The notes: a model not told the origin generated them from the letters alone. Shown: positions 1,875-42,858, counted from the first letter of the stretch. The stretch: DNA of 64,000 nucleotides from Candidatus Nanoarchaeia archaeon (GCA_035289385.1 DATDXI010000066.1:1548-65547); one strand, 5' to 3'. Made by a program: numbers and translations.

Positions 1875-2525
1875 CTATCCCTCTCGACAATACCTTTCGA
1901 TATACTCTTTCATCTTTTGGACGGAAGGAACAACTCCTTCCAGGATAAGGACTTGAAGCTCTTCTTCATCTGCAGGGGCTGGAAAATCATCCAATAGTCT
2001 TTTAAGAAAAGAAAGCACTCCTTTTCGGTCTTGCACAAATCTCAATAAAAAGAAGATATCATAAAGATCACGGATTTTCTTTCTGTTAAGGTAAGCATTT
2101 ACTTTTTCTTCCACGAATTGCTCTGGGGTCAGCGTAAGGACAGTAAGGTAATTTCCACTGATGGTTTCATATTCTTTTAGGCAGTTGTCTTTCTTCAGGA
2201 AAAGAGCCTCAAAGCGAACTTTCTGCCGCTGCAGCTGCAACGTCGAATAAATACTGTTGGCAGTAACTTTTTTCTTCTCTAGGATAAACCCTCTCTCCTT
2301 CAGCTTTTCCCAATAGCTGGCTATTTTTTGCTCATCTCGGGGCAGATAGACATCCAAGTCTTCAGAGAATCTTCCTCCTCCATAGCACCTCCAGATAGCT
2401 GTTCCTCCATGAAGAATGGCCGTAGGGAAAGTTATGTATAATTCCTCCACCAGAATATCTTGAGCTAAAGCTATCTCTTGATGGATATGCTTCTTCAGCT
2501 TTTGCCCTAACGCTATTTTTACCAT
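1875..2525 (-). CDS. AbiEii / DUF1814-family nucleotidyltransferase (type IV toxin-antitoxin / abortive-infection toxin family)
   Basis: Contains the diagnostic motif ILHGGTAIWRCYGGGRFSEDLDVYL, equivalent to the GGTAL..YG..RFSEDLD nucleotidyltransferase signature of DUF1814/AbiEii. Confidence 0.65.
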   Translation of the reverse strand: MVKIALGQKLKKHIHQEIALAQDILVEELYITFPTAILHGGTAIWRCYGGGRFSEDLDVYLPRDEQKIASYWEKLKERGFILEKKKVTANSIYSTLQLQRQKVRFEALFLKKDNCLKEYETISGNYLTVLTLTPEQFVEEKVNAYLNRKKIRDLYDIFFLLRFVQDRKGVLSFLKRLLDDFPAPADEEELQVLILEGVVPSVQKMKEYIERYCREG

Positions 2526-2593: not shown

Positions 2594-2626
2594 GTACGTA
2601 TTTAGTTCGGTTAAAATAGTGGGCAG
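2594..2626. repeat. Solo terminal-inverted-repeat fragment of the MITE-like family (GTACGTATTTAGTTCGGTTAAAATAGTGGGCAG)
   Basis: About 33 nt that are nearly identical to the reverse complement of the right ends of the elements at 33990-34173 and 42393-42559. The body of the element is absent. Confidence 0.5.
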
Positions 2627-16277: not shown

Positions 16278-17231
16278 TTAATCCGGCACAATCGATAACG
16301 TCGGGAATTCCGTATAGCCAAAGTACTCGTATCCTTTGATTACATCACTAAATCTCTTTACTACTTCTTCCAAGACTTCCAATAAATGGCTCAAATCTCT
16401 TACAACAATCTCTGTCTCAAAATCTGCTCCGCCGATGGACTTATTGATCTGATAAAAATATTTGTGCTGCTTCAGATACTCAAATAACTCCTTATTTCTT
16501 TTCATGGAATTCAATAAAAAATCAACCCTATATCCTTGATAACCCATCTTTTGCAAGTTAGGATTTATTTTATAACCAACAATAATGTTTTCCTTTTCAA
16601 GCCGGATAATTCTTTTTCTTACTGTTTCAGATGAAACCTTCAATTGTTGGGCAATCTTTGTCAATGGTTTTCTGACGTCAATGGCATATAGCTGGATTAT
16701 TTGCTCATCCAATTCATCCACGTCAGCAAGTTGGCCGCTTCCATAAACTCTTTCAATAACTTCTGTCTTTCCGTCCATGAAAAATCTCTTGTTAAAATTA
16801 TGGACTGGCGCGTAGATGGCAATCTTACTCTCTGCAATTTTATCTTTATACCCTAACAGAACATCATTCCATAGTTGATGAAACTTATCTGTTGACTTTA
16901 CGCCCATAAAAAAAGCAAAATCCCATTTCCCATGAAGGACTGTTGTCGTCCAAACATTTTCTTTAATCTTTATTTTTTCATAAAATTCTTTTTTTTGTCC
17001 TTCCGTCATATTCTGCCATCTTAAGTACACACGAAAGGTAAAATACCCTAGCTTTGACATATCCACAATAGCACTACATCCCAGAATGATCTTCTCGTTT
17101 TCTAACCTATGGATGCGAAAATTAACAAACTCTTTTGATCGTTTAACCCTTTTGGCAATGGCTGAAACCGGTTGCGATGAATCTCGTTCCAGCTCAAAAA
17201 GGATCTTCTTATCAAATACATCTAGCTTCAT
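16278..17231 (-). CDS. Tandem-domain Lrp/AsnC-family transcriptional regulator (two HTH+RAM repeats)
   Basis: Two repeats, each with an N-terminal Lrp HTH (DVFDKKILFELERDSSQPVSAIAKRVKRSKEFVNFRIHRLENEKII; DELDEQIIQLYAIDVRKPLTKIAQQLKVSSETVRKRIIRLEKENIIV) followed by RAM-like domains. Confidence 0.75.
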   Translation of the reverse strand: MKLDVFDKKILFELERDSSQPVSAIAKRVKRSKEFVNFRIHRLENEKIILGCSAIVDMSKLGYFTFRVYLRWQNMTEGQKKEFYEKIKIKENVWTTTVLHGKWDFAFFMGVKSTDKFHQLWNDVLLGYKDKIAESKIAIYAPVHNFNKRFFMDGKTEVIERVYGSGQLADVDELDEQIIQLYAIDVRKPLTKIAQQLKVSSETVRKRIIRLEKENIIVGYKINPNLQKMGYQGYRVDFLLNSMKRNKELFEYLKQHKYFYQINKSIGGADFETEIVVRDLSHLLEVLEEVVKRFSDVIKGYEYFGYTEFPTLSIVPD

Positions 17232-18330: not shown

Positions 18331-19398
18331 ATGAAAAAAGTTAATCCAAAAGTATTCTCAAAATCCCGGACAGATTTAGCTGGAGATATATTGTGTAATT
18401 CCCAGAGTTCAGAAGAGGAAAAAGATGAGGCTTTAGAGATATTGAGCAACTGGAGAGGTGCACATAGCTATCCCCTGCATGTTTTTAAACAGCGATTAAA
18501 AAATGTTTCTGAAAAAATAGATCCCTCTGCATTATCAGCACAGCGACTAAAACGTGTCCCTTCTATTATAAAGAAGCTTAACCGGGAATATGGCGGTAAA
18601 AAAGCCACGATGAAATTAACTCAAATGCAAGATATTGCTGGATGTAGGGCCGTTATGTCTAATGTATCATTGGCAAAAAAACTATATTTAGATCATTACA
18701 TAAAGGGTGATATAAAACATAAACGGGTAAATGAAAAAGATTATATCACTCATCCTAAGAAAGACGGGTATAGAAGTATTCATTTAATTTATAGATATCA
18801 TAGTGATAAAAAAGGAAGAATTAATTTCAATGGGTTATTGATTGAAGTCCAGATTAGATCTAAGTTGCAGCATATATGGGCTACAGCAATTGAAACTGTT
18901 GATTTTTTTACAAGACAAGCGATAAAATCAAATCAAGGTCAAGAAGATTGGGCAGATTTTTTTAGATTGGTAAGTTCTGCATTTGCTAAGTTTGAGGGGT
19001 GTCCAACAATACCAGAAACACCAACAGATGAAGAAGAACTCTACAAAATGATTAAGCAAAAAGAGATGGAGCTTCAGGTTAGAATAAAGATGAATCGTTG
19101 GGCAAAATCACTCAAGCTTTTTGATAATTTAAAAAATAAAAAGAATTTTCACTTTTTTCTATTGGAATTAGATACCATTCAAGAAAAACTAACTATCTCT
19201 GCATACTCCAAAAGACAAGAGCAAAAAGCTATCTTCGATTATGCAGCGGCTGAGAAAAAGATTTATGGCAGGGGAGAGTATGATGTTGTTCTAGTAGGTG
19301 CAGATACTGTTAAAGATTTGAAAAAAGCTTATCCCAATTACTTTCTTGATACTAAAGAATTCCTAATTAATCTTAATAAAGTTCTCAATAAACATTGA
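18331..19398 (+). CDS. RelA/SpoT-domain protein (small alarmone synthetase / toxSAS-like nucleotide pyrophosphokinase)
   Basis: Synthetase-domain signatures: MQDIAGCRAVMSNVSLAKKLY, KKDGYRSIHLIYRYHSD and LIEVQIRSKLQHIWATAIE, equivalent to the DIAG.R, GYRSLH and EVQIRT..QH.WA motifs of RelA/SpoT synthetase domains. The protein has about 155 extra C-terminal residues and no hydrolase domain. Confidence 0.75.
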   Translation: MKKVNPKVFSKSRTDLAGDILCNSQSSEEEKDEALEILSNWRGAHSYPLHVFKQRLKNVSEKIDPSALSAQRLKRVPSIIKKLNREYGGKKATMKLTQMQDIAGCRAVMSNVSLAKKLYLDHYIKGDIKHKRVNEKDYITHPKKDGYRSIHLIYRYHSDKKGRINFNGLLIEVQIRSKLQHIWATAIETVDFFTRQAIKSNQGQEDWADFFRLVSSAFAKFEGCPTIPETPTDEEELYKMIKQKEMELQVRIKMNRWAKSLKLFDNLKNKKNFHFFLLELDTIQEKLTISAYSKRQEQKAIFDYAAAEKKIYGRGEYDVVLVGADTVKDLKKAYPNYFLDTKEFLINLNKVLNKH

Positions 19399-19436: not shown

Positions 19437-20420
19437 TCATTTCCCAACTTTCAGCATCTCTTGATACGCCGGCATCCACGTTTCATAGATCATGATCAAG
19501 TGCTCGTAATTTCTTATGACGTGGGGAAAATGCATTCGGAGATCATTAATTATCTTGTTAAAATGCTGATAACTTTCTACGGCAAATTCAAATTCAACTT
19601 CCCAAGGGGCTAAGCTTCGGATGTAATAGAGGGAGTTAGGATGCCTTTTCATCCATTCAAATAATGCTCGTTCATCTTTCTCTGATAATGTCCTAAAATA
19701 AATAATAGCTTTAAAAAATTCTAATCCTAATTTATTTAAGTCAACTGCTATCCTATAGCTCAATATAATCTCTTTCTCCTCTAATTTTCTAATTCTTCCC
19801 CGAACTATCTCAATAGTTGAACTAACTTTTCGGGCTAATTCAGCAAGAGGAACTCTGGCATCATTGGCTAAGATGTTCAATATTTTAGAATCTACATCAT
19901 CTATAGTATTATGGACAACATCTCCTCCAAAAACAATATATTGGCCATCTTTTGAATCGGTGAAGAATTTTTTGGTATATTGTCTCGTATCTACCATCGT
20001 TCCAAGGATTTTACTTACAATAAGATGCTGCCATCTTGAAAGCAAATAATTTATTTTAGTGAAATAATCAGGTATATTTTTGGATAAAATAGCAAAAACA
20101 ACATCAAAAGCGCCGTCTGAAATCCCCATCCAATAAATGTCTGGATTTTTTTTTAGCTCTTCAAAGAACTTCTCTCGTTCTTCAGGAATATTTTCTAGCT
20201 TTAGATATACTTTAAACATGTAATATCCTAATTTGTTGGGGTTTATCGAGGTGATGAATTTCTCGATGATGCCTCTTTTTTGCAATTGTTGAATCCTATA
20301 TTTTACTGATTCTCGGGATTTATTTACTTTCTTGGCTAGGGCAATGTTGGAAATGCGGCAGTTCTTATCAAGTTCTGCCAATATTTTTCTATCCGTTAAA
20401 TCTAGGTTATATTTCTCCAT
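19437..20420 (-). CDS. Tandem-domain Lrp/AsnC-family transcriptional regulator, paralog of 16278-17231
   Basis: LTDRKILAELDKNCRISNIALAKKVNKSRESVKYRIQQLQKRGII plus RAM, then a second HTH DVDSKILNILANDARVPLAELARKVSSTIEIVRGRIRKLEEKEII plus RAM. Confidence 0.75.
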   Translation of the reverse strand: MEKYNLDLTDRKILAELDKNCRISNIALAKKVNKSRESVKYRIQQLQKRGIIEKFITSINPNKLGYYMFKVYLKLENIPEEREKFFEELKKNPDIYWMGISDGAFDVVFAILSKNIPDYFTKINYLLSRWQHLIVSKILGTMVDTRQYTKKFFTDSKDGQYIVFGGDVVHNTIDDVDSKILNILANDARVPLAELARKVSSTIEIVRGRIRKLEEKEIILSYRIAVDLNKLGLEFFKAIIYFRTLSEKDERALFEWMKRHPNSLYYIRSLAPWEVEFEFAVESYQHFNKIINDLRMHFPHVIRNYEHLIMIYETWMPAYQEMLKVGK

Positions 20421-33376: not shown

Positions 33377-33943
33377 CTATTCTGTTTTTTCCTCTTTCTT
33401 GCTTTCTTTTGGCTGCTGCTCTTCAAGCCATTCTAATTTTCCTAAGCCTTCCTGTCTCATCGTCAACCCGATACGAGGGTTATTCATATCTTTATAAGAT
33501 ACTGCGATGATCCTAGCTTTGCATTTGTCTCCTACTTTTATGCTTTGATTAGATTTTTTTCCTTGCAGCACTTTTTCTTTACTAAAGGAAACGAAATCAT
33601 CCATGCTCTGAGAGATATGAACCATCCCTTCGGTTCCGCCGATATCCATAAATGCTCCGAAATCAGTGATATCCTTGATCTTGCCGTACACTAATTCGTT
33701 GAGTTCCGGCTTGAAGGTCAATAGTTCAAATTCCGTCTCATAGAATCCTGCTCCATCCCCTGGCACGATGACTCCTTCTTTGACATCACCTACGTCAATA
33801 ACATTTACGACAAAACCCAGCTCTTTTGAGATGTACTGGTCGTAGGTAGACTTGATATTAGCGAGAACAGCTTCCTTTTTTGTCAGGTTGAACATATTAG
33901 GGGGTACACGGATAAAATCCTTGACTTTGACCTTGTAGAACAT
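33377..33943 (-). CDS. rpoE: DNA-directed RNA polymerase subunit E' (Rpo7) with S1 domain
   Basis: MFYKVKVKDFIRVPP...GFYETEFELLTFKPELNELVYGKIKDITDFGAFMDIG...GMVHISQ is the Rpb7/E' fold plus an S1 domain. Confidence 0.85.
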   Translation of the reverse strand: MFYKVKVKDFIRVPPNMFNLTKKEAVLANIKSTYDQYISKELGFVVNVIDVGDVKEGVIVPGDGAGFYETEFELLTFKPELNELVYGKIKDITDFGAFMDIGGTEGMVHISQSMDDFVSFSKEKVLQGKKSNQSIKVGDKCKARIIAVSYKDMNNPRIGLTMRQEGLGKLEWLEEQQPKESKKEEKTE

Positions 33944-33989
33944 TTTAAGCTTAATTTAAGCAGGGTATTTATAAATATTGCGGTTTGGA

Positions 33990-34173
33990 GTACGTATTTA
34001 GTTCAATAAAGAAAATAGTGGCAGGTCGGAAAATCTAGCCTGACTTTCTTGATAAGCAATGATTGAGCTTTGATTTTAAGCTAAAAGTCAGGCAACTAAA
34101 CAGGTCTTACGAAGCTCTCAATATATTTTCCCTCTTGACCTTGCCACTATTTTTAACCGAACTAAATACGTAC
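33990..34173. mobile_element. MITE-like element copy A (184 bp) with 15-bp TIR GTACGTATTTAGTTC and candidate 8-bp TSD GGTTTGGA
   Basis: The left end is GTACGTATTTAGTTCAATAAAGAAAATAGTGGCAGGTC. The right end is GACCTTGCCACTATTTTTAACCGAACTAAATACGTAC, which is its reverse complement apart from a few mismatches. The flanking GGTTTGGA occurs at 33982-33989 and 34174-34181. The interior contains the inverted repeat AGCCTGACTTT/AAAGTCAGGC. Confidence 0.6.
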
Positions 34174-34230
34174 GGTTTGGATCGCTGGGTTTCCCTTAAG
34201 CTATGGTCTTAGGAGTTATACTTGCCCGAT

Positions 34231-34752
34231 TTAACTGCTTCTTATCCCTCCCAGAATGATGCTCCTTACTATTCTCCACAGATAGTCTTGGTCTGTTTTG
34301 AGGGGATCAACATCCCAAGAGTTGAGATATTCTTCGAGATGTCTGATATGGCTTTCAAAGTTAGGGGTGGTATGGTGGGCATACTGTACTCCCATCAGCC
34401 CAGGCTTTTGCTGAAGCGCTCTTTCCATGATTGCAGGTGGGTATCTCAACCATTCTTTTTCAGTCTGTGGACGAATCCCCACCGGTTTAATATCTCCTCT
34501 TGCTAAATTATAGAATTGTGGGAGTTCATCGATCCAGTATCTCCTAAGAAATTTACCCATGGGTGTTATTCTTGGATCTGATAATGGATGCCCATGGGAA
34601 TCAAAACCATCAACTAATTCGACAAGCCTTTGGTCAGCATCTCTGTCCATCGTTCTAAATTTATAGATATCAATAGGTCTTCCATCTTCTCCTAAACATT
34701 TCTTTACATATATGATGTCCCCAACCATCGTATCGCCGTTCAGTTTCCGCAA
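34231..34752 (-). CDS. Bacterial sugar transferase (Bac_transf / polyprenyl-phosphate hexose-1-phosphate transferase) catalytic domain, no TM segment
   Basis: IDIYKFRTMDRDADQ and KFLRRYWIDELPQFYNLARGDIKPVGIRP match the Bac_transf signature (YKFRSM...LR.s.lDELPQl.NVl.G.MSlVGPRP). Confidence 0.6.
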   Translation of the reverse strand: MRKLNGDTMVGDIIYVKKCLGEDGRPIDIYKFRTMDRDADQRLVELVDGFDSHGHPLSDPRITPMGKFLRRYWIDELPQFYNLARGDIKPVGIRPQTEKEWLRYPPAIMERALQQKPGLMGVQYAHHTTPNFESHIRHLEEYLNSWDVDPLKTDQDYLWRIVRSIILGGIRSS

Positions 34753-37480: not shown

Positions 37481-38746
37481 CTACCGGAGAAGGTGTGTTC
37501 TTCGTCCATACGTTTCTAGAATCGTTTTTTCTTGTTCGGGATCCATTTCATAACGGCCTTTCTCTACTTTTCTGACACCTATTCTCTGCATAAATCCAGT
37601 AAATGATCCTAAGGGGATGTCATATGTTGATGTGATTTCTGTGAACGTCCAGACTTTAGCAAGGGTGCCTGATCCGTTTCCTTCTGAAGATACATTATCT
37701 GCTAGGTTATCTGAGGGAGAGTTTTTCACTATTTTTTTTTTCCCCAGACCTAAGCGGTTGATCCTATCGTAAAGGCTCTTTTTGCTAATGCCAAGGCGCT
37801 TGGCGGCCATATTTTTATTCCCTTTGGTATTTGCCAAAGCGGTGAGAATACATGAACGCTCAGTCTCTTTCAAAATGTCGTAGATGGTTCTTTCCTGTCT
37901 TCTTTCGGTTGTTTCTGTAGTTTGAGATAAAGATGTCCAATCATAATTGATGTCCTCTGCCTGAATTTCACCTGCTCCTCGTAGGATGATAGCTCTCTCC
38001 ACGACATTCTCCAAATCTCTTACATTGCCACCCCAGTCATAGAGCTTCAGCTTTTCCTGTGCTGCTGGAGAGATGCCCGTTACTTCTATTCCATGATCCT
38101 GGGCATATCTTTCTATAATATATCTAGCTATCAGGGGGACATCATCAATCCTGGCGCGCAAGGGAGGAAGTTCTAGAGGAAAAGCATTGAGGCGATAAAA
38201 TAGGTCTTGCCGAAAAGTTCCTTTACTCATTTCGTCTTCAAGATTGCGGTTTGTCGCGGCGAGAATTCTTACATTGACAGGAACAGGGGTATTGCTTCCT
38301 ACCGGGAAAACTACGCGCTGCTGAATCACTTGAAGCAGCTTTGCCTGTAAATGGGGGGACATTTCTCCAATTTCATCAAGAAGGATAGTCCCTCCTTCAG
38401 CAGCTTGAAAATATCCCTTGTAGTCTTTTATTGCGCCAGTAAATGATCCTTTAGCGTGACCAAAAAGCTGAGATTCTAAAACTCCTTCCGCAATTCCTGG
38501 ACAATTTACGGTAAAGAATGGTTTTGCTCCACGGCCATTTCTGTTGTTGTAATGAAGAGCAGCAGCAACCAATCCTTTTCCCGTTCCTGTCTCACCGGTA
38601 ATCAAAACGTTGGTTGGCATGTCCACAAGGCGATTGATAAAACCATAGAGTTGCAGCATTTCAGGAGTTTGACCAACAATAGGCCCTTGGCCATGTTCTA
38701 TCATATATCGGCCAGTCTCTGGAGAATAATGTCTTATTTCTGCCAT
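37481..38746 (-). CDS. Sigma-54-interaction-domain AAA+ transcriptional activator (bacterial enhancer-binding-protein type) with Fis-type HTH and ~85-aa C-terminal extension; no N-terminal sensor domain
   Basis: Walker A GETGTGKGLVAAALH, the GAFTGA-equivalent loop GHAKGSFTGAIKD, Walker B GGTILLDEIGEM, an arginine-finger region RILAATNRNLEDEMSKGTFRQDLFYRLN, and an HTH block ILTALANTKGNKNMAAKRLGISKKSLYDRI. Confidence 0.75.
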   Translation of the reverse strand: MAEIRHYSPETGRYMIEHGQGPIVGQTPEMLQLYGFINRLVDMPTNVLITGETGTGKGLVAAALHYNNRNGRGAKPFFTVNCPGIAEGVLESQLFGHAKGSFTGAIKDYKGYFQAAEGGTILLDEIGEMSPHLQAKLLQVIQQRVVFPVGSNTPVPVNVRILAATNRNLEDEMSKGTFRQDLFYRLNAFPLELPPLRARIDDVPLIARYIIERYAQDHGIEVTGISPAAQEKLKLYDWGGNVRDLENVVERAIILRGAGEIQAEDINYDWTSLSQTTETTERRQERTIYDILKETERSCILTALANTKGNKNMAAKRLGISKKSLYDRINRLGLGKKKIVKNSPSDNLADNVSSEGNGSGTLAKVWTFTEITSTYDIPLGSFTGFMQRIGVRKVEKGRYEMDPEQEKTILETYGRRTHLLR

Positions 38747-38790
38747 CTTATAGCTAGAAAATCACTCATTTATAAATGTGATTGCAACAA

Positions 38791-39011
38791 GTATGTATTA
38801 AGTTCTACAACAAAAATAGTGGCAGGTCGGAAAATTCAGCGAGACTTAATGTAAGAAGTAGCTTGATGAGTGATAGTTTAAGCAAATGGTCTCGCAACTA
38901 GCCTTGTTTTACAAAGTTCTTAATGAATTTTCCCTCTTGACGTTGACCTGAGCGAGCAAGAAGCGAGCTCTTGCATTTCAGACCACTATTTTGACCGAAC
39001 TTAATACATAC
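38791..39011. mobile_element. MITE-like element copy B (221 bp) with perfect 15-bp TIR GTATGTATTAAGTTC and 8-bp TSD TGCAACAA
   Basis: The left end GTATGTATTAAGTTC (38791-38805) and the right end GAACTTAATACATAC (38997-39011) are exact reverse complements. TGCAACAA flanks the element at 38783-38790 and 39012-39019. The interior is homologous to copies A and C (AAAATAGTGGCAGGTCGGAAAAT ... GCAACTAGCCTTGTTTTACAAAG ... TTTTCCCTCTTGAC). Confidence 0.65.
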
Positions 39012-39157
39012 TGCAACAATCTTGTCGGAGAAGGAAATGAAGTTTGCATTCTCTTTTCATCACTAAAACATTAAGGATAATCCTACCTATTCTACCACCA
39101 AAAACTTTAATAAGCATTTGGCAATTACTGAGGTAGTATAGGGGGTCGGCATAAAAG

Positions 39158-41377: not shown

Positions 41378-41485
41378 GCACCGGTAGTATAGTGGTTAGT
41401 ATGTCGGCCTTCCATATAGGAAGTGTCTTTTGAGGCTCTTCTGCGAAGGGAGCCGATCACCCGGGTTCGAATCCCGGCCGGTGCA
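41378..41485 (+). tRNA. tRNA-Gly (anticodon UCC) with a 36-nt intron after position 37/38
   Basis: Acceptor GCACCGG/CCGGTGC, D arm GTAT-AGTGGTTA-GTAT, anticodon stem TCGGC/GCCGA and loop CT-TCC-A, T arm CCGGG-TTCGAAT-CCCGG, discriminator A, no encoded CCA. The intron is 41415-41450 and contains GGAAG complementary to the anticodon-loop CTTCC (bulge-helix-bulge style). Confidence 0.7.
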
Positions 41486-42311: not shown

Positions 42312-42392
42312 ATGAAGAGAGAAAGAAAAACTCCTTTTATATTTTGTGGGTCAAGGAATCAGACCAAGAATAAAAAAATATTTATTTTTTAT

Positions 42393-42559
42393 AACGAAAA
42401 TAGTGGCAGGTCGTAAAATCCAGCAAGGCTTACTCTGAAAGTGAATGTATTCCCATAAGTTTTAAGTGGAAAGCCTTGCAACTAGACTTGTCTTACGACG
42501 CTTTTAATGGATTTTACCTCTGGACCTTGCCACTATTTTTAACCGAACTAAATACGTAC
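42393..42559. mobile_element. MITE-like element copy C (left end truncated)
   Basis: GAAAATAGTGGCAGGTCGTAAAATCCAGCAAGGCTT ... GGAAAGCCTTGCAACTAGACTTGTCTTACGACG ... TTTTACCTCTGGACCTTGCCACTATTTTTAACCGAACTAAATACGTAC. The right TIR is intact. The outer 15 nt of the left TIR are missing. Confidence 0.55.
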
Positions 42560-42571
42560 ATAATAAAATTA

Positions 42572-42858
42572 TTAGGGGCATGCCCTCGGTCGAATATACT
42601 TGGCTACTGCAGCTGAACCCTAACGGCTTCTCGGACCTGCGCTCCTCTGAACATGGACAGTACAGGTTATGGCTGCTTTCTTCCGAATCTGACCAGATTC
42701 CCAGCATCGCCATCCCAAAGGACAGATCGTCAGCAAAGACGCCAGGACTGCAATAACCCCGTAAACCCTTCCTCAGGCTTCGGCTCCGTGTAAAGTCCGT
42801 TCACGGTGACAACGCAGGACTAGCGCGCCAGCCTAGCTTACCCTAATCTCTAGCTTGA
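42572..42858 (-). ncRNA. ffs: Signal recognition particle RNA (7S/SRP RNA); boundaries approximate
   Basis: GC-rich (about 55%) 290-bp non-coding stretch in a roughly 40% GC genome. The minus strand reads GGUCAGAUUCGGAAGAAAGCAGCCAUAACCUG. This matches the universally conserved SRP RNA helix-8 (domain IV) motif CAGGUCCGGAAGGAAGCAGCC, including the GGAA tetraloop and the AGCAGCC asymmetric loop. The 3' end has a GGGCAUGCCC hairpin. Confidence 0.65.

Follow-up and report, generated by a model that had tools for sequence, protein, structure and literature searches.

A probable miniature transposon family of Woesearchaeota-type archaea that sits at the edge of core promoters and carries a compensated fold

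Background

What kind of sequence can occupy the short space ahead of an essential archaeal gene cluster, and what becomes of the promoter there? The question is raised by a 64,000-nt stretch of DNA from Candidatus Nanoarchaeia archaeon (GCA_035289385.1, DATDXI010000066.1:1548-65547; hereafter the window), in which a 184-bp hairpin-forming segment at 33990-34173, termed here copy A, lies between the rpoE'-spt4-S24e-S27ae cluster and a small sugar-transferase gene. An earlier note on this sequence had described it as resembling a miniature inverted-repeat transposable element (MITE) that could contribute promoter or terminator activity to the cluster. Our analysis indicates that copy A is very probably a non-autonomous DNA transposon of a family uncharacterised until now, resident in a Woesearchaeota-type DPANN archaeon, whose members mostly sit at the edge of core promoters and share a fold maintained by compensatory changes. 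DPANN genomes are tiny and gene-dense, and the persistence of mobile DNA in them is poorly understood; the strategy of this family, insertion at the outer edge of the BRE/TATA region (BRE, B recognition element), leaves both the core promoter and the gene intact.

Copy A and its mobile family

Copy A (plus strand, the orientation of the family alignment; nhmmer E = 1e-50) is bounded by a left terminal inverted repeat (TIR) GTACGTATTTAGTTC (33990-34004), which forms the 5' strand of helix P1, and by a right TIR GAACTAAATACGTAC (34159-34173) that is its exact reverse complement (15/15 bp). Perfect copies of an 8-bp target site duplication (TSD), GGTTTGGA, flank it at 33982-33989 and 34174-34181; a repeat search returns this duplication as the 9-nt direct repeat CGGTTTGGA, because the final base of the element is also C. 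Inward from the left TIR follow a subterminal conserved block AAAATAGTGGCAGGTC (34012-34027; 5' strand of helices P2/P3, with its partner at 34137-34153), the 5' strand of helix P4 GGAAAATCTA (34028-34037; partner 34122-34131) and an off-centre inner hairpin, P5 (34038-34093), with a variable loop that ends in the conserved TTTAAGC, and whose arms GCCTGACTTT (34038-34047) and AAAGTCAGGC (34084-34093) are complementary at 10/10 positions. Next comes an asymmetric conserved segment AACTAAACAGGTCTTACGAAGCTCTCAA (34094-34121; family consensus GCAACTA..CTTATCTTACGAAG), which is the source of the polarity of the element, and then, at 34122-34158, the 3' strands of P4 (TATATTTTCC), P3 (GACC) and P2 (GCCACTATTTT), with a conserved unpaired CTCTT between P4 and P3. 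The motif CCACTATTTT(T) is also present in the element. Credible coding capacity is lacking, the sole internal open reading frame (ORF) being a 49-aa TTG ORF that extends past the element end. Both strands fold far more stably than their shuffled counterparts (plus strand, -63.9 kcal/mol, z = -8.05; minus strand, -68.2 kcal/mol, z = -8.94), and the terminal 15-mer, with up to 3 mismatches allowed, is present at 7 places in the window where 1.02 would be expected, a count that 0/100 shuffles reach.

A family profile run with nhmmer on the window revealed three full copies and one fragment (3 + 1 in 64 kb), namely copy A, copies B and C, and a solo end, D. When the end pattern was compared with one genome per prokaryotic species, a single metagenome-assembled genome (MAG) matched, that of Candidatus Woesearchaeota archaeon NC_groundwater_205; all 10 of its matching loci carry an element of 184-230 bp. 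A scan of metagenomes returned 98 stretches, mostly from the Ga0209541 (JGI 3300025317) and Ga0209542 contig sets, the former of which also contains an identical copy of this region (L015). De-duplication left 78 distinct full-length relatives, of which 2 lie elsewhere in the window, 10 belong to the Woesearchaeota MAG and the rest come from groundwater metagenome contigs. They range from 184 bp, as in copy A, to variants of 207-294 bp with extra hairpins. The TSD is perfect (8/8) in 49 of the 78 and matches at 6/8 or more in 65, and its sequence is different at each site. The host is likewise a Woesearchaeota-type DPANN archaeon, as follows from the names attached to RpoE' homologues, which are Candidatus Woesearchaeota or Nanoarchaeota wherever a source is named, and from the archaeal signal recognition particle (SRP) RNA in the window (40.8% G+C).

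Mobility is seen directly in three pairs of orthologous contigs with clean filled and empty sites, the empty site holding a single copy of the octamer. In contig L033 the element stands between two copies of GCTTCTTC, the second followed by AAAACATTTAAATA, and the orthologous L073 has one GCTTCTTC; reciprocally, L073 is filled at GGTGAAGC where L033 is empty (GGTAGAGC). The third pair comprises the filled L035 and the empty L057, with one TTTCTTCA.

Copy A itself is present in 6/6 long contigs that encode an identical RpoE'. The identity is 100% across 584 nt, and the contigs, although from different samples, stand for a single population. In a sister lineage (L122-L126, RpoE' 99% identical), the 108 nt upstream of rpoE' do not include copy A, and the alignment to the window (92% identity) starts exactly at 33989, the last base of the TSD. 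The sister sequence reads ATCAAAACC-ACAATA-TTTATAAATACC where the window has GTAC, TCCAAACC, GCAATA and TTTATAAATACC; its unoccupied site is TCAAAACC, followed by ACAATATTTATAAATACC. The comparison of orthologous regions for insertion polymorphism, which the earlier note had proposed, thus finds copy A absent from the sister lineage, with homology ending at the element boundary. Together with the TIRs, the fixed 8-bp TSD, the many dispersed copies and the empty sites, this upholds the MITE assignment of that note, whose coordinates and sequences for the TIRs, TSD and inner hairpin of copy A all proved correct and whose surmise of other members of the same TIR family agrees with copies B, C and D.

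Several further observations concern the history of these sites. At rpoE' the sister lineage is approximately 92% identical to the window (measured on L123). Two haplotypes occur in sample ERZ27254763: L012 has copy A and lacks copy B together with its neighbouring sigma-54-type gene, and L124 has B and lacks A. L124 is 99.9% identical to the window around B and carries the sister-lineage rpoE' allele (P0001), without copy A and the sugar-transferase gene, and L012 shows the reverse, with 100% identity around A and only 88.6-91.5% on either flank of the B region. Such mosaic haplotypes suggest recombination between related strains. In addition, L025 (1663-1960) and L010 (1328-1511) share an insertion site (between TTTTTTCC and AAAAYMCTTATAAATCC) with flanks 88.7% identical; L010 has a full copy, and L025 has a 58-nt remnant and a second full copy 8 nt from the end of the remnant, which is evidence that part of the insertions are old and that a site may be used more than once.

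Position relative to core promoters

The gene next to copy A is rpoE' (33377-33943, minus strand), which encodes the 188-aa RNA polymerase subunit E' with SHS2_Rpb7-N and S1 domains and opens the cluster. The left end of the element lies 47 nt upstream of the A of its ATG (33943), in good agreement with the earlier estimate of about 45 bp. The core promoter of the operon (33968-33981, minus strand) consists of a BRE-like GCAATA (33981-33976) followed by the TATA box TTTATAAA (33975-33968), which starts 6 nt past the TSD and 32 nt ahead of the ATG; on the minus strand, the base that opens the left TSD interval is the last one of the TSD and also starts the BRE region. The BRE/TATA sequence lies outside the TSD and is unchanged in the lineage devoid of copy A, and the BRE/TATA-to-ATG architecture is kept in relatives with 83-88% RpoE' identity that have no element there. 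Because the promoter is conserved in element-free relatives, copy A is not its source, and the earlier suggestion that the element could contribute promoter activity is not supported, the BRE/TATA being host sequence. By sequence comparison the promoter of the cluster predates the insertion, with BRE, TATA box and leaderless start all intact. The core promoter of an essential gene cluster has thus come through the insertion unaltered.

To see how far this arrangement extends, we listed the flanks of all unique sites in element orientation. A strict TTTAWA occurs exactly 6 nt past the TSD in 21 of the 116 outward flanks (10 of them 3' and 11 of them 5' of the element) and at offset 8 in 6 more, with 0-1 occurrences at every other offset up to 44. 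A match of at least 7/8 to TTTAWAWA is found at offset 6 in 34/119 flanks and at offset 8 in 9, most other offsets having 0-3. At random intergenic positions of the same contigs such a match at offset 6 is met in 1.1% of cases, i.e. the enrichment is 25-fold (binomial p about 2e-37). With the threshold lowered to 6/8, 45 of the 61 sites have a TATA box at offset 6. In 24 of these it is confined to the 5' side and in 18 to the 3' side, and 3 have it on both; the box can thus flank the element at its left or its right end, directed outwards.

The logo of the pre-insertion site is M, then R-M-A-A-N-M, then TTTAWAWA, where the leading M is the last base of the TSD; its other seven bases are uninformative. 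The first T of the TATA box is followed at 28-34 nt by the start of a long ORF in at least 22 of 48 flanks, a spacing indicative of leaderless archaeal promoters. Counted from the start codon, the TSD accordingly spans about -45 to -38, with the element directly adjoining the BRE. The phased promoters are already present at the empty orthologous sites, and the offset-6 spacing is identical in copies A and B and in the three filled/empty pairs. The integration of this family is therefore base-precise at the upstream edge of archaeal core promoters: the TSD ends where the BRE starts, and the TATA box follows 6 nt on. Promoter proximity, noted at first for a single copy, is a family-wide property that lay beyond what the earlier note could see. 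The elements mark dozens of real promoters in unculturable organisms, and their flanks supply both a BRE/TATA logo and the leaderless TATA-to-ATG spacing.

A compensated fold

The structural analysis was based on an alignment of 48 copies of the 184-188-bp class (median pairwise identity 75%). RNAalifold predicts 41 pairs, 14 of them compensatory. A hand-defined structure of 52 pairs comprises P1 (the terminal repeats), P2/P3, in which AAAATAGTGGC-A-GGTC pairs with GACC-NN-GCCACTATTTT, P4, the off-centre inner hairpin P5, and P7, a small stem in the asymmetric segment. It pairs in 96.2% of cells (96.5% for P1), and both sides have changed in 16 pairs and 120 cells; 0/500 shuffles reach these values, and slid controls pair in 30-40% only. 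Compensatory changes affect 6/10 pairs of P4 and 4/8 of P5. Among the clearest examples are columns 56-111, located in P5 (CG 24, GC 18, AU 5), 57-110 (UA 25, AU 21), 50-144 (UA 20, CG 19) and 44-150 (UA 30, GC 11). The motifs TTTAAGC, GCAACTA and CTCTT are conserved and unpaired. Since its interior is asymmetric, the element is more than a simple palindrome. Gene conversion between the arms was considered as a source of the covariation and rejected: P5 is an off-centre local hairpin with arms of 8-10 bp, and the P4 and P5 variants combine differently.

The proportion of perfect TSDs (63%) corresponds to a calculated decay of roughly 3% per site since insertion, against approximately 25% divergence between copies, which suggests that most of the divergence, including the compensatory changes, arose in active source lineages. 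We infer that the fold is selected for propagation of the element, as a single-stranded DNA or RNA form, and not for a host function of the resident copies; the random orientation of the elements with respect to the adjacent promoter and neighbouring genes is consistent with this. The element is thus both mobile and structurally constrained. A compensated fold is unusual for a DNA transposon with TIRs and TSDs and suggests a structured single-stranded stage, or an RNA, in the life cycle. The fold and the insertion rule at the BRE edge, 6 nt from the TATA box, are both new relative to the earlier note.

The long variants (207-294 bp: L004, L005, L024, L033, L060, L073, L077, L088 and others) contain recurring GC-richer hairpin modules, e.g. 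GTGACYTGCAAGCAAACGAAGCAGATGAGTTTGCTTGTTTGCAYGTCAC, at a few discrete positions, which on the left or right arm are sometimes mirror images of each other; the modules replace one strand of P4. These modules could be nested mini-palindromes or expansion segments.

A host function at rpoE'?

The alternative that survives best, although we regard it as unlikely, is that copy A has been co-opted at the rpoE' locus as a terminator or insulator for the transcript of the sugar-transferase gene, as an upstream promoter element, or as a gene for a structured small RNA. Its position between the 3' end of that gene and the rpoE' promoter is suitable, its hairpin is very stable on either strand, and each strand ends in CCACUAUUUU(U), a U-run that may be able to promote archaeal termination. 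The fold is conserved with covariation, the 13:1 excess of G.T over A.C mismatches in P5 is a weak hint that one strand matters there, and the copy is 100% conserved in six contigs. These contigs, however, are a single population, so that their identity says little about constraint, and the integrity of the TSDs places the structural constraint on source lineages and not on resident copies. The core promoter is older than the element, and the elements show no orientation bias, neither towards the adjacent promoter, as the side counts given above demonstrate, nor in tandem gene contexts (10 vs 12). An internal promoter resembling BRE/TATA is lacking: the conserved TTTAAG deviates from the local consensus at its most conserved A, and neither it nor the A-rich subterminal blocks fit the local logo, on which grounds we rejected an internal promoter. 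The lack of orientation bias likewise led us to discard a 3'-untranslated-region element co-transcribed with the upstream gene. Against Rfam 15, the window yields nothing at the gathering threshold besides the SRP RNA and tRNAs, and over the element the best match at E <= 10 is sR4, with 10.9 bits against a gathering score of 50. A role of copy A as terminator or insulator is possible, going by its hairpin and U-runs, but as an account of the element we prefer a transposon whose fold serves its own propagation.

Targeting or selection

A second alternative concerns the promoter phasing. Insertion could be near-random in AT-rich DNA, with selection alone sparing the inserts that fall downstream of one gene and ahead of the core promoter of the next. 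In its favour, DPANN genomes have short intergenic regions, an insert in most other places would do damage, the octamers that become duplicated are almost devoid of sequence information, and every copy studied is fixed or at high frequency. Selection for a location somewhere upstream would nevertheless spread the inserts over the whole spacer, and what we see is a spike at offset 6 (34 flanks, with 9 at offset 8 and mostly 0-3 elsewhere), a 25-fold enrichment over random intergenic positions, and the same spacing in copies A and B and the three filled/empty pairs. A spike at a single position points to target choice by the integration machinery, and we consider selection alone improbable. As a second influence, inserts located on the gene side of the TATA box are probably lost through selection. 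The one-sided, asymmetric site determinant is at least compatible with an external landmark.

The last alternative takes the element for a conserved gene of a structured RNA that does not move, or for a palindrome arisen by chance, with a coincidental TSD. It can draw on the P4 and P5 covariation and the strong fold but is already refuted, its probability being practically nil, by perfect 8-bp TSDs of unrelated sequence in 49/78 relatives, three orthologous empty sites with a single octamer, absence of the element from the sister lineage, and more terminal-repeat occurrences than in any shuffle. The earlier note had held that covarying base pairs in TSD-less orthologous regions would indicate such an RNA; covarying pairs do exist, but among mobile, TSD-bearing copies and not at a fixed orthologous RNA locus.

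Search for a transposase

Loci matching the end pattern of the family were searched for an autonomous partner. Pfam analysis of 20 ORFs from the window revealed no transposase, and all-against-all BLASTP of 414 ORFs from the loci gave syntenic orthologue groups only, with no multi-copy transposase-like family. Viral contigs contained 0 matches to the end pattern. Terminal repeats paired within 8 kb (up to 2 mismatches) comprised only MITE-sized pairs, chance pairs of neighbouring MITEs and one 642-bp composite. The latter (L069, 82-723) has a perfect 8/8 TSD (CTTAAACC) and consists of a terminal repeat with 2 mismatches, approximately 400 bp of other sequence, and a MITE body with a decayed inner end. 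It was rejected as an autonomous element, as the ORF inside encodes an 82-aa coiled-coil protein and no transposase, and it may be a derivative that carries cargo. Unpaired ends whose interior is not MITE-like (L025, L030, L054, L057) were discarded as well, since they adjoin ordinary genes or proteins without a Pfam match; L054, which comes from another metagenome (prefix Ga0206127) and lies beside a methyltransferase ORF judged by eye to be restriction-modification-like, is a probable chance match.

An 8-bp TSD is also made by the insertion sequence (IS) families IS6, IS66/ISBst12, ISL3, IS256, IS1595 and ISH6. The likeness of our family to these lies in TSD length, which is compatible and does not permit assignment to any of them; its ends starting with GTA presumably recall IS66-type ends.

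Weighing the evidence and a proposed mechanism

Certain results weigh against the interpretation of copy A as a promoter-targeting transposon with a selected fold. No autonomous element or transposase with the family ends was found in the window ORFs, approximately 800 kb of related loci or viral contigs, and the type of transposase and the mechanism of the 8-bp stagger are inferred from the anatomy of the element only. Copy A has no clean empty site and only its promoter-side junction is exact, because the sister lineage also lacks the sugar-transferase gene (84 nt stand for 754 nt; L123 5871-5954 against 33990-34744 of the window). The phasing is incomplete, 16 of the 61 sites, copy C among them, having no TATA box at offset 6, and the data consist of fixed insertions, in which targeting and selection are confounded. 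As to the fold, G.T and A.C mismatches are symmetric in P1-P4 and biased in P5 only, and the elements have no orientation bias relative to host genes. On balance we still consider the transposon interpretation very probable.

The following scheme would account for the observations. The element would move by cut-and-paste or copy-and-paste with a DDE-type transposase supplied in trans, which would bind the roughly 40-bp bipartite ends (GTACGTATTTAGTTC-N4-7-AAAATAGTGGCAGGTC) and make 8-bp staggered cuts in the target. The transpososome might pick its target by the BRE/TATA region, read either as bare sequence or shape or as the bent DNA of a promoter bound by TATA-binding protein (TBP) and transcription factor B (TFB). 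Purifying selection would then eliminate insertions that part the TATA box from its gene, and promoter-edge sites would serve as "safe havens" where genes are densely packed. We put forward only tentatively, as a conjecture with rather less than an even chance, that the transposase is guided by TBP (through TATA bending) and TFB (through the BRE) so as to integrate one helical turn upstream, and that the covarying fold is a required single-stranded (DNA or RNA) intermediate or cofactor. The family is a candidate system in which to tell reading of the promoter sequence by an archaeal transposase from recognition of the TBP/TFB complex. At rpoE', copy A displaces all upstream sequence beyond -45 by 192 bp and, as a side effect, may stop transcripts that run on from the sugar-transferase gene; for rpoE' expression it is probably close to neutral, as far as can be judged from the intact promoter.

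Other copies and neighbouring features

The gene on the far side of copy A, Bac_transf (sugar transferase; 34231-34752, minus strand), encodes 173 aa and ends 57 nt from the element; this gene and the rpoE' cluster had been correctly named in the earlier note, as domain matches and the presence of Spt4, S24e and S27 downstream of rpoE' confirm. A similar small Bac_transf gene lies downstream of S27ae in more distant relatives (L020, 5597-6100), and a 111-aa ORF near Bac_transf has a different N-terminus in the sister lineage (132 aa).

Copy B (38791-39011, plus strand; 38783-39019 with the TSD) is 221 bp long owing to an extra hairpin module and has a perfect TSD, TGCAACAA (8/8). It stands at the promoter of a sigma-54-type activator gene, which reads, in reverse complement, TTGTTGCA, ATCACA and TTTATAAA, then 30 nt to the ATG. 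The region (37481-39019) encodes a 421-aa protein with a sigma-54 interaction domain and a Fis-type helix-turn-helix (HTH), i.e. the architecture of bacterial enhancer-binding proteins, which is odd for an archaeon, as archaea have no sigma-54. Copy B and this gene are jointly absent from L012 and L123, where 93 nt take the place of approximately 1.6 kb, with a break that does not coincide with the MITE end. The copy B of L014 has suffered a 145-nt internal deletion between short TTCAG repeats, which leaves a 76-bp mini-element.

Copy C (about 42375-42559, plus strand) has a decayed left terminal repeat and an AT-rich TSD matching at about 7/8; its right end lies 15 nt past the 3' end of the SRP RNA gene (42575-42843, minus strand), within the T-rich terminator region. 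The solo right-end fragment D (2594-2622, minus strand) retains 29 nt, the remainder of the element being missing, and lies upstream of an AbiEii-type toxin gene (1875-2525, minus strand) with the TATA box at offset 10, not 6.

Elsewhere in the window, Rfam detects a tRNA over 108 nt at 41378-41485 (56.7 bits, full model) that ARAGORN does not report and that is probably an intron-containing archaeal tRNA. A 355-aa RelA/SpoT-domain protein (18331-19398) adjoins two double-HTH AsnC-type regulators (16278-17231 and 19437-20420).

Comparison with known systems

A high MITE load in the Woesearchaeota lineage is already on record: the part considered here of a census of MITEs in DPANN archaea places a "Woesearchaea" genome, at 105 MITEs per Mb, with those archaea whose MITE density is highest (PMC11602168). 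That part gives counts only, with nothing on family anatomy, a target-site rule or structural conservation, and the word "TATA" is absent from it. A review of prokaryotic MITEs mentions archaeal ones only from Sulfolobus, haloarchaea and Desulfurococcus, and reports no promoter-phased targeting (PMC10969869). Our literature search found no TATA-phased targeting by a prokaryotic MITE or IS, and a search for the end sequence gave only coincidental matches in unrelated bacterial and phage papers.

Our family resembles prokaryotic MITEs with folded transcripts, such as the Correia elements of Neisseria, and the archaeal MITEs of Sulfolobus and Haloquadratum in being small, non-coding, AT-rich and strongly hairpin-forming, with TIRs, a TSD of fixed length and many intergenic copies, often beside genes (PMC10969869). 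It differs from both in its base-precise phasing to the BRE/TATA and in that no parent IS was found. Correia elements target the TA dinucleotide and carry sigma-70 promoters of their own and a site for integration host factor (PMC10969869), whereas this family has an 8-bp TSD of almost any sequence and no recognisable internal promoter.

With respect to target choice, members of the IS1202 family insert 5 bp from the XerC site of dif (PMC10132070), and so offer a case of a prokaryotic TIR element that keeps a constant small spacing from a DNA site bound by a protein. They are, however, autonomous, 1.5 kb long and found in one orientation at recombination sites, unlike the non-autonomous elements described here, which occur in either orientation at transcription promoters; the resemblance is one of apparent mode of action and not of membership. 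The same applies to the closest functional analogues, the retrotransposons Ty3 of yeast and TRE5-A of Dictyostelium, which integrate at fixed positions upstream of genes transcribed by RNA polymerase III (Pol III) via TFIIIB/TBP (PMC8632968, PMC6101501, PMC5006619). In common with our family, they show position-specific integration next to a TBP-containing promoter complex that leaves the gene intact, read as a safe haven in compact genomes. The Brf/TFIIB and TBP factors that they use have archaeal homologues in TFB and TBP. The difference is that they are retrotransposons whose tethering through integrase or ORF1 has been shown biochemically, whereas here the mobile unit is a non-coding TIR DNA element and tethering by TBP/TFB is a hypothesis only. 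The family thus appears to work like Ty3 and TRE5-A without being one of them, and integration guided by TBP/TFB, if true, would parallel that of the eukaryotic retroelements that target Pol III genes and be an archaeal DNA-transposon counterpart of Ty3-TFIIIB targeting.

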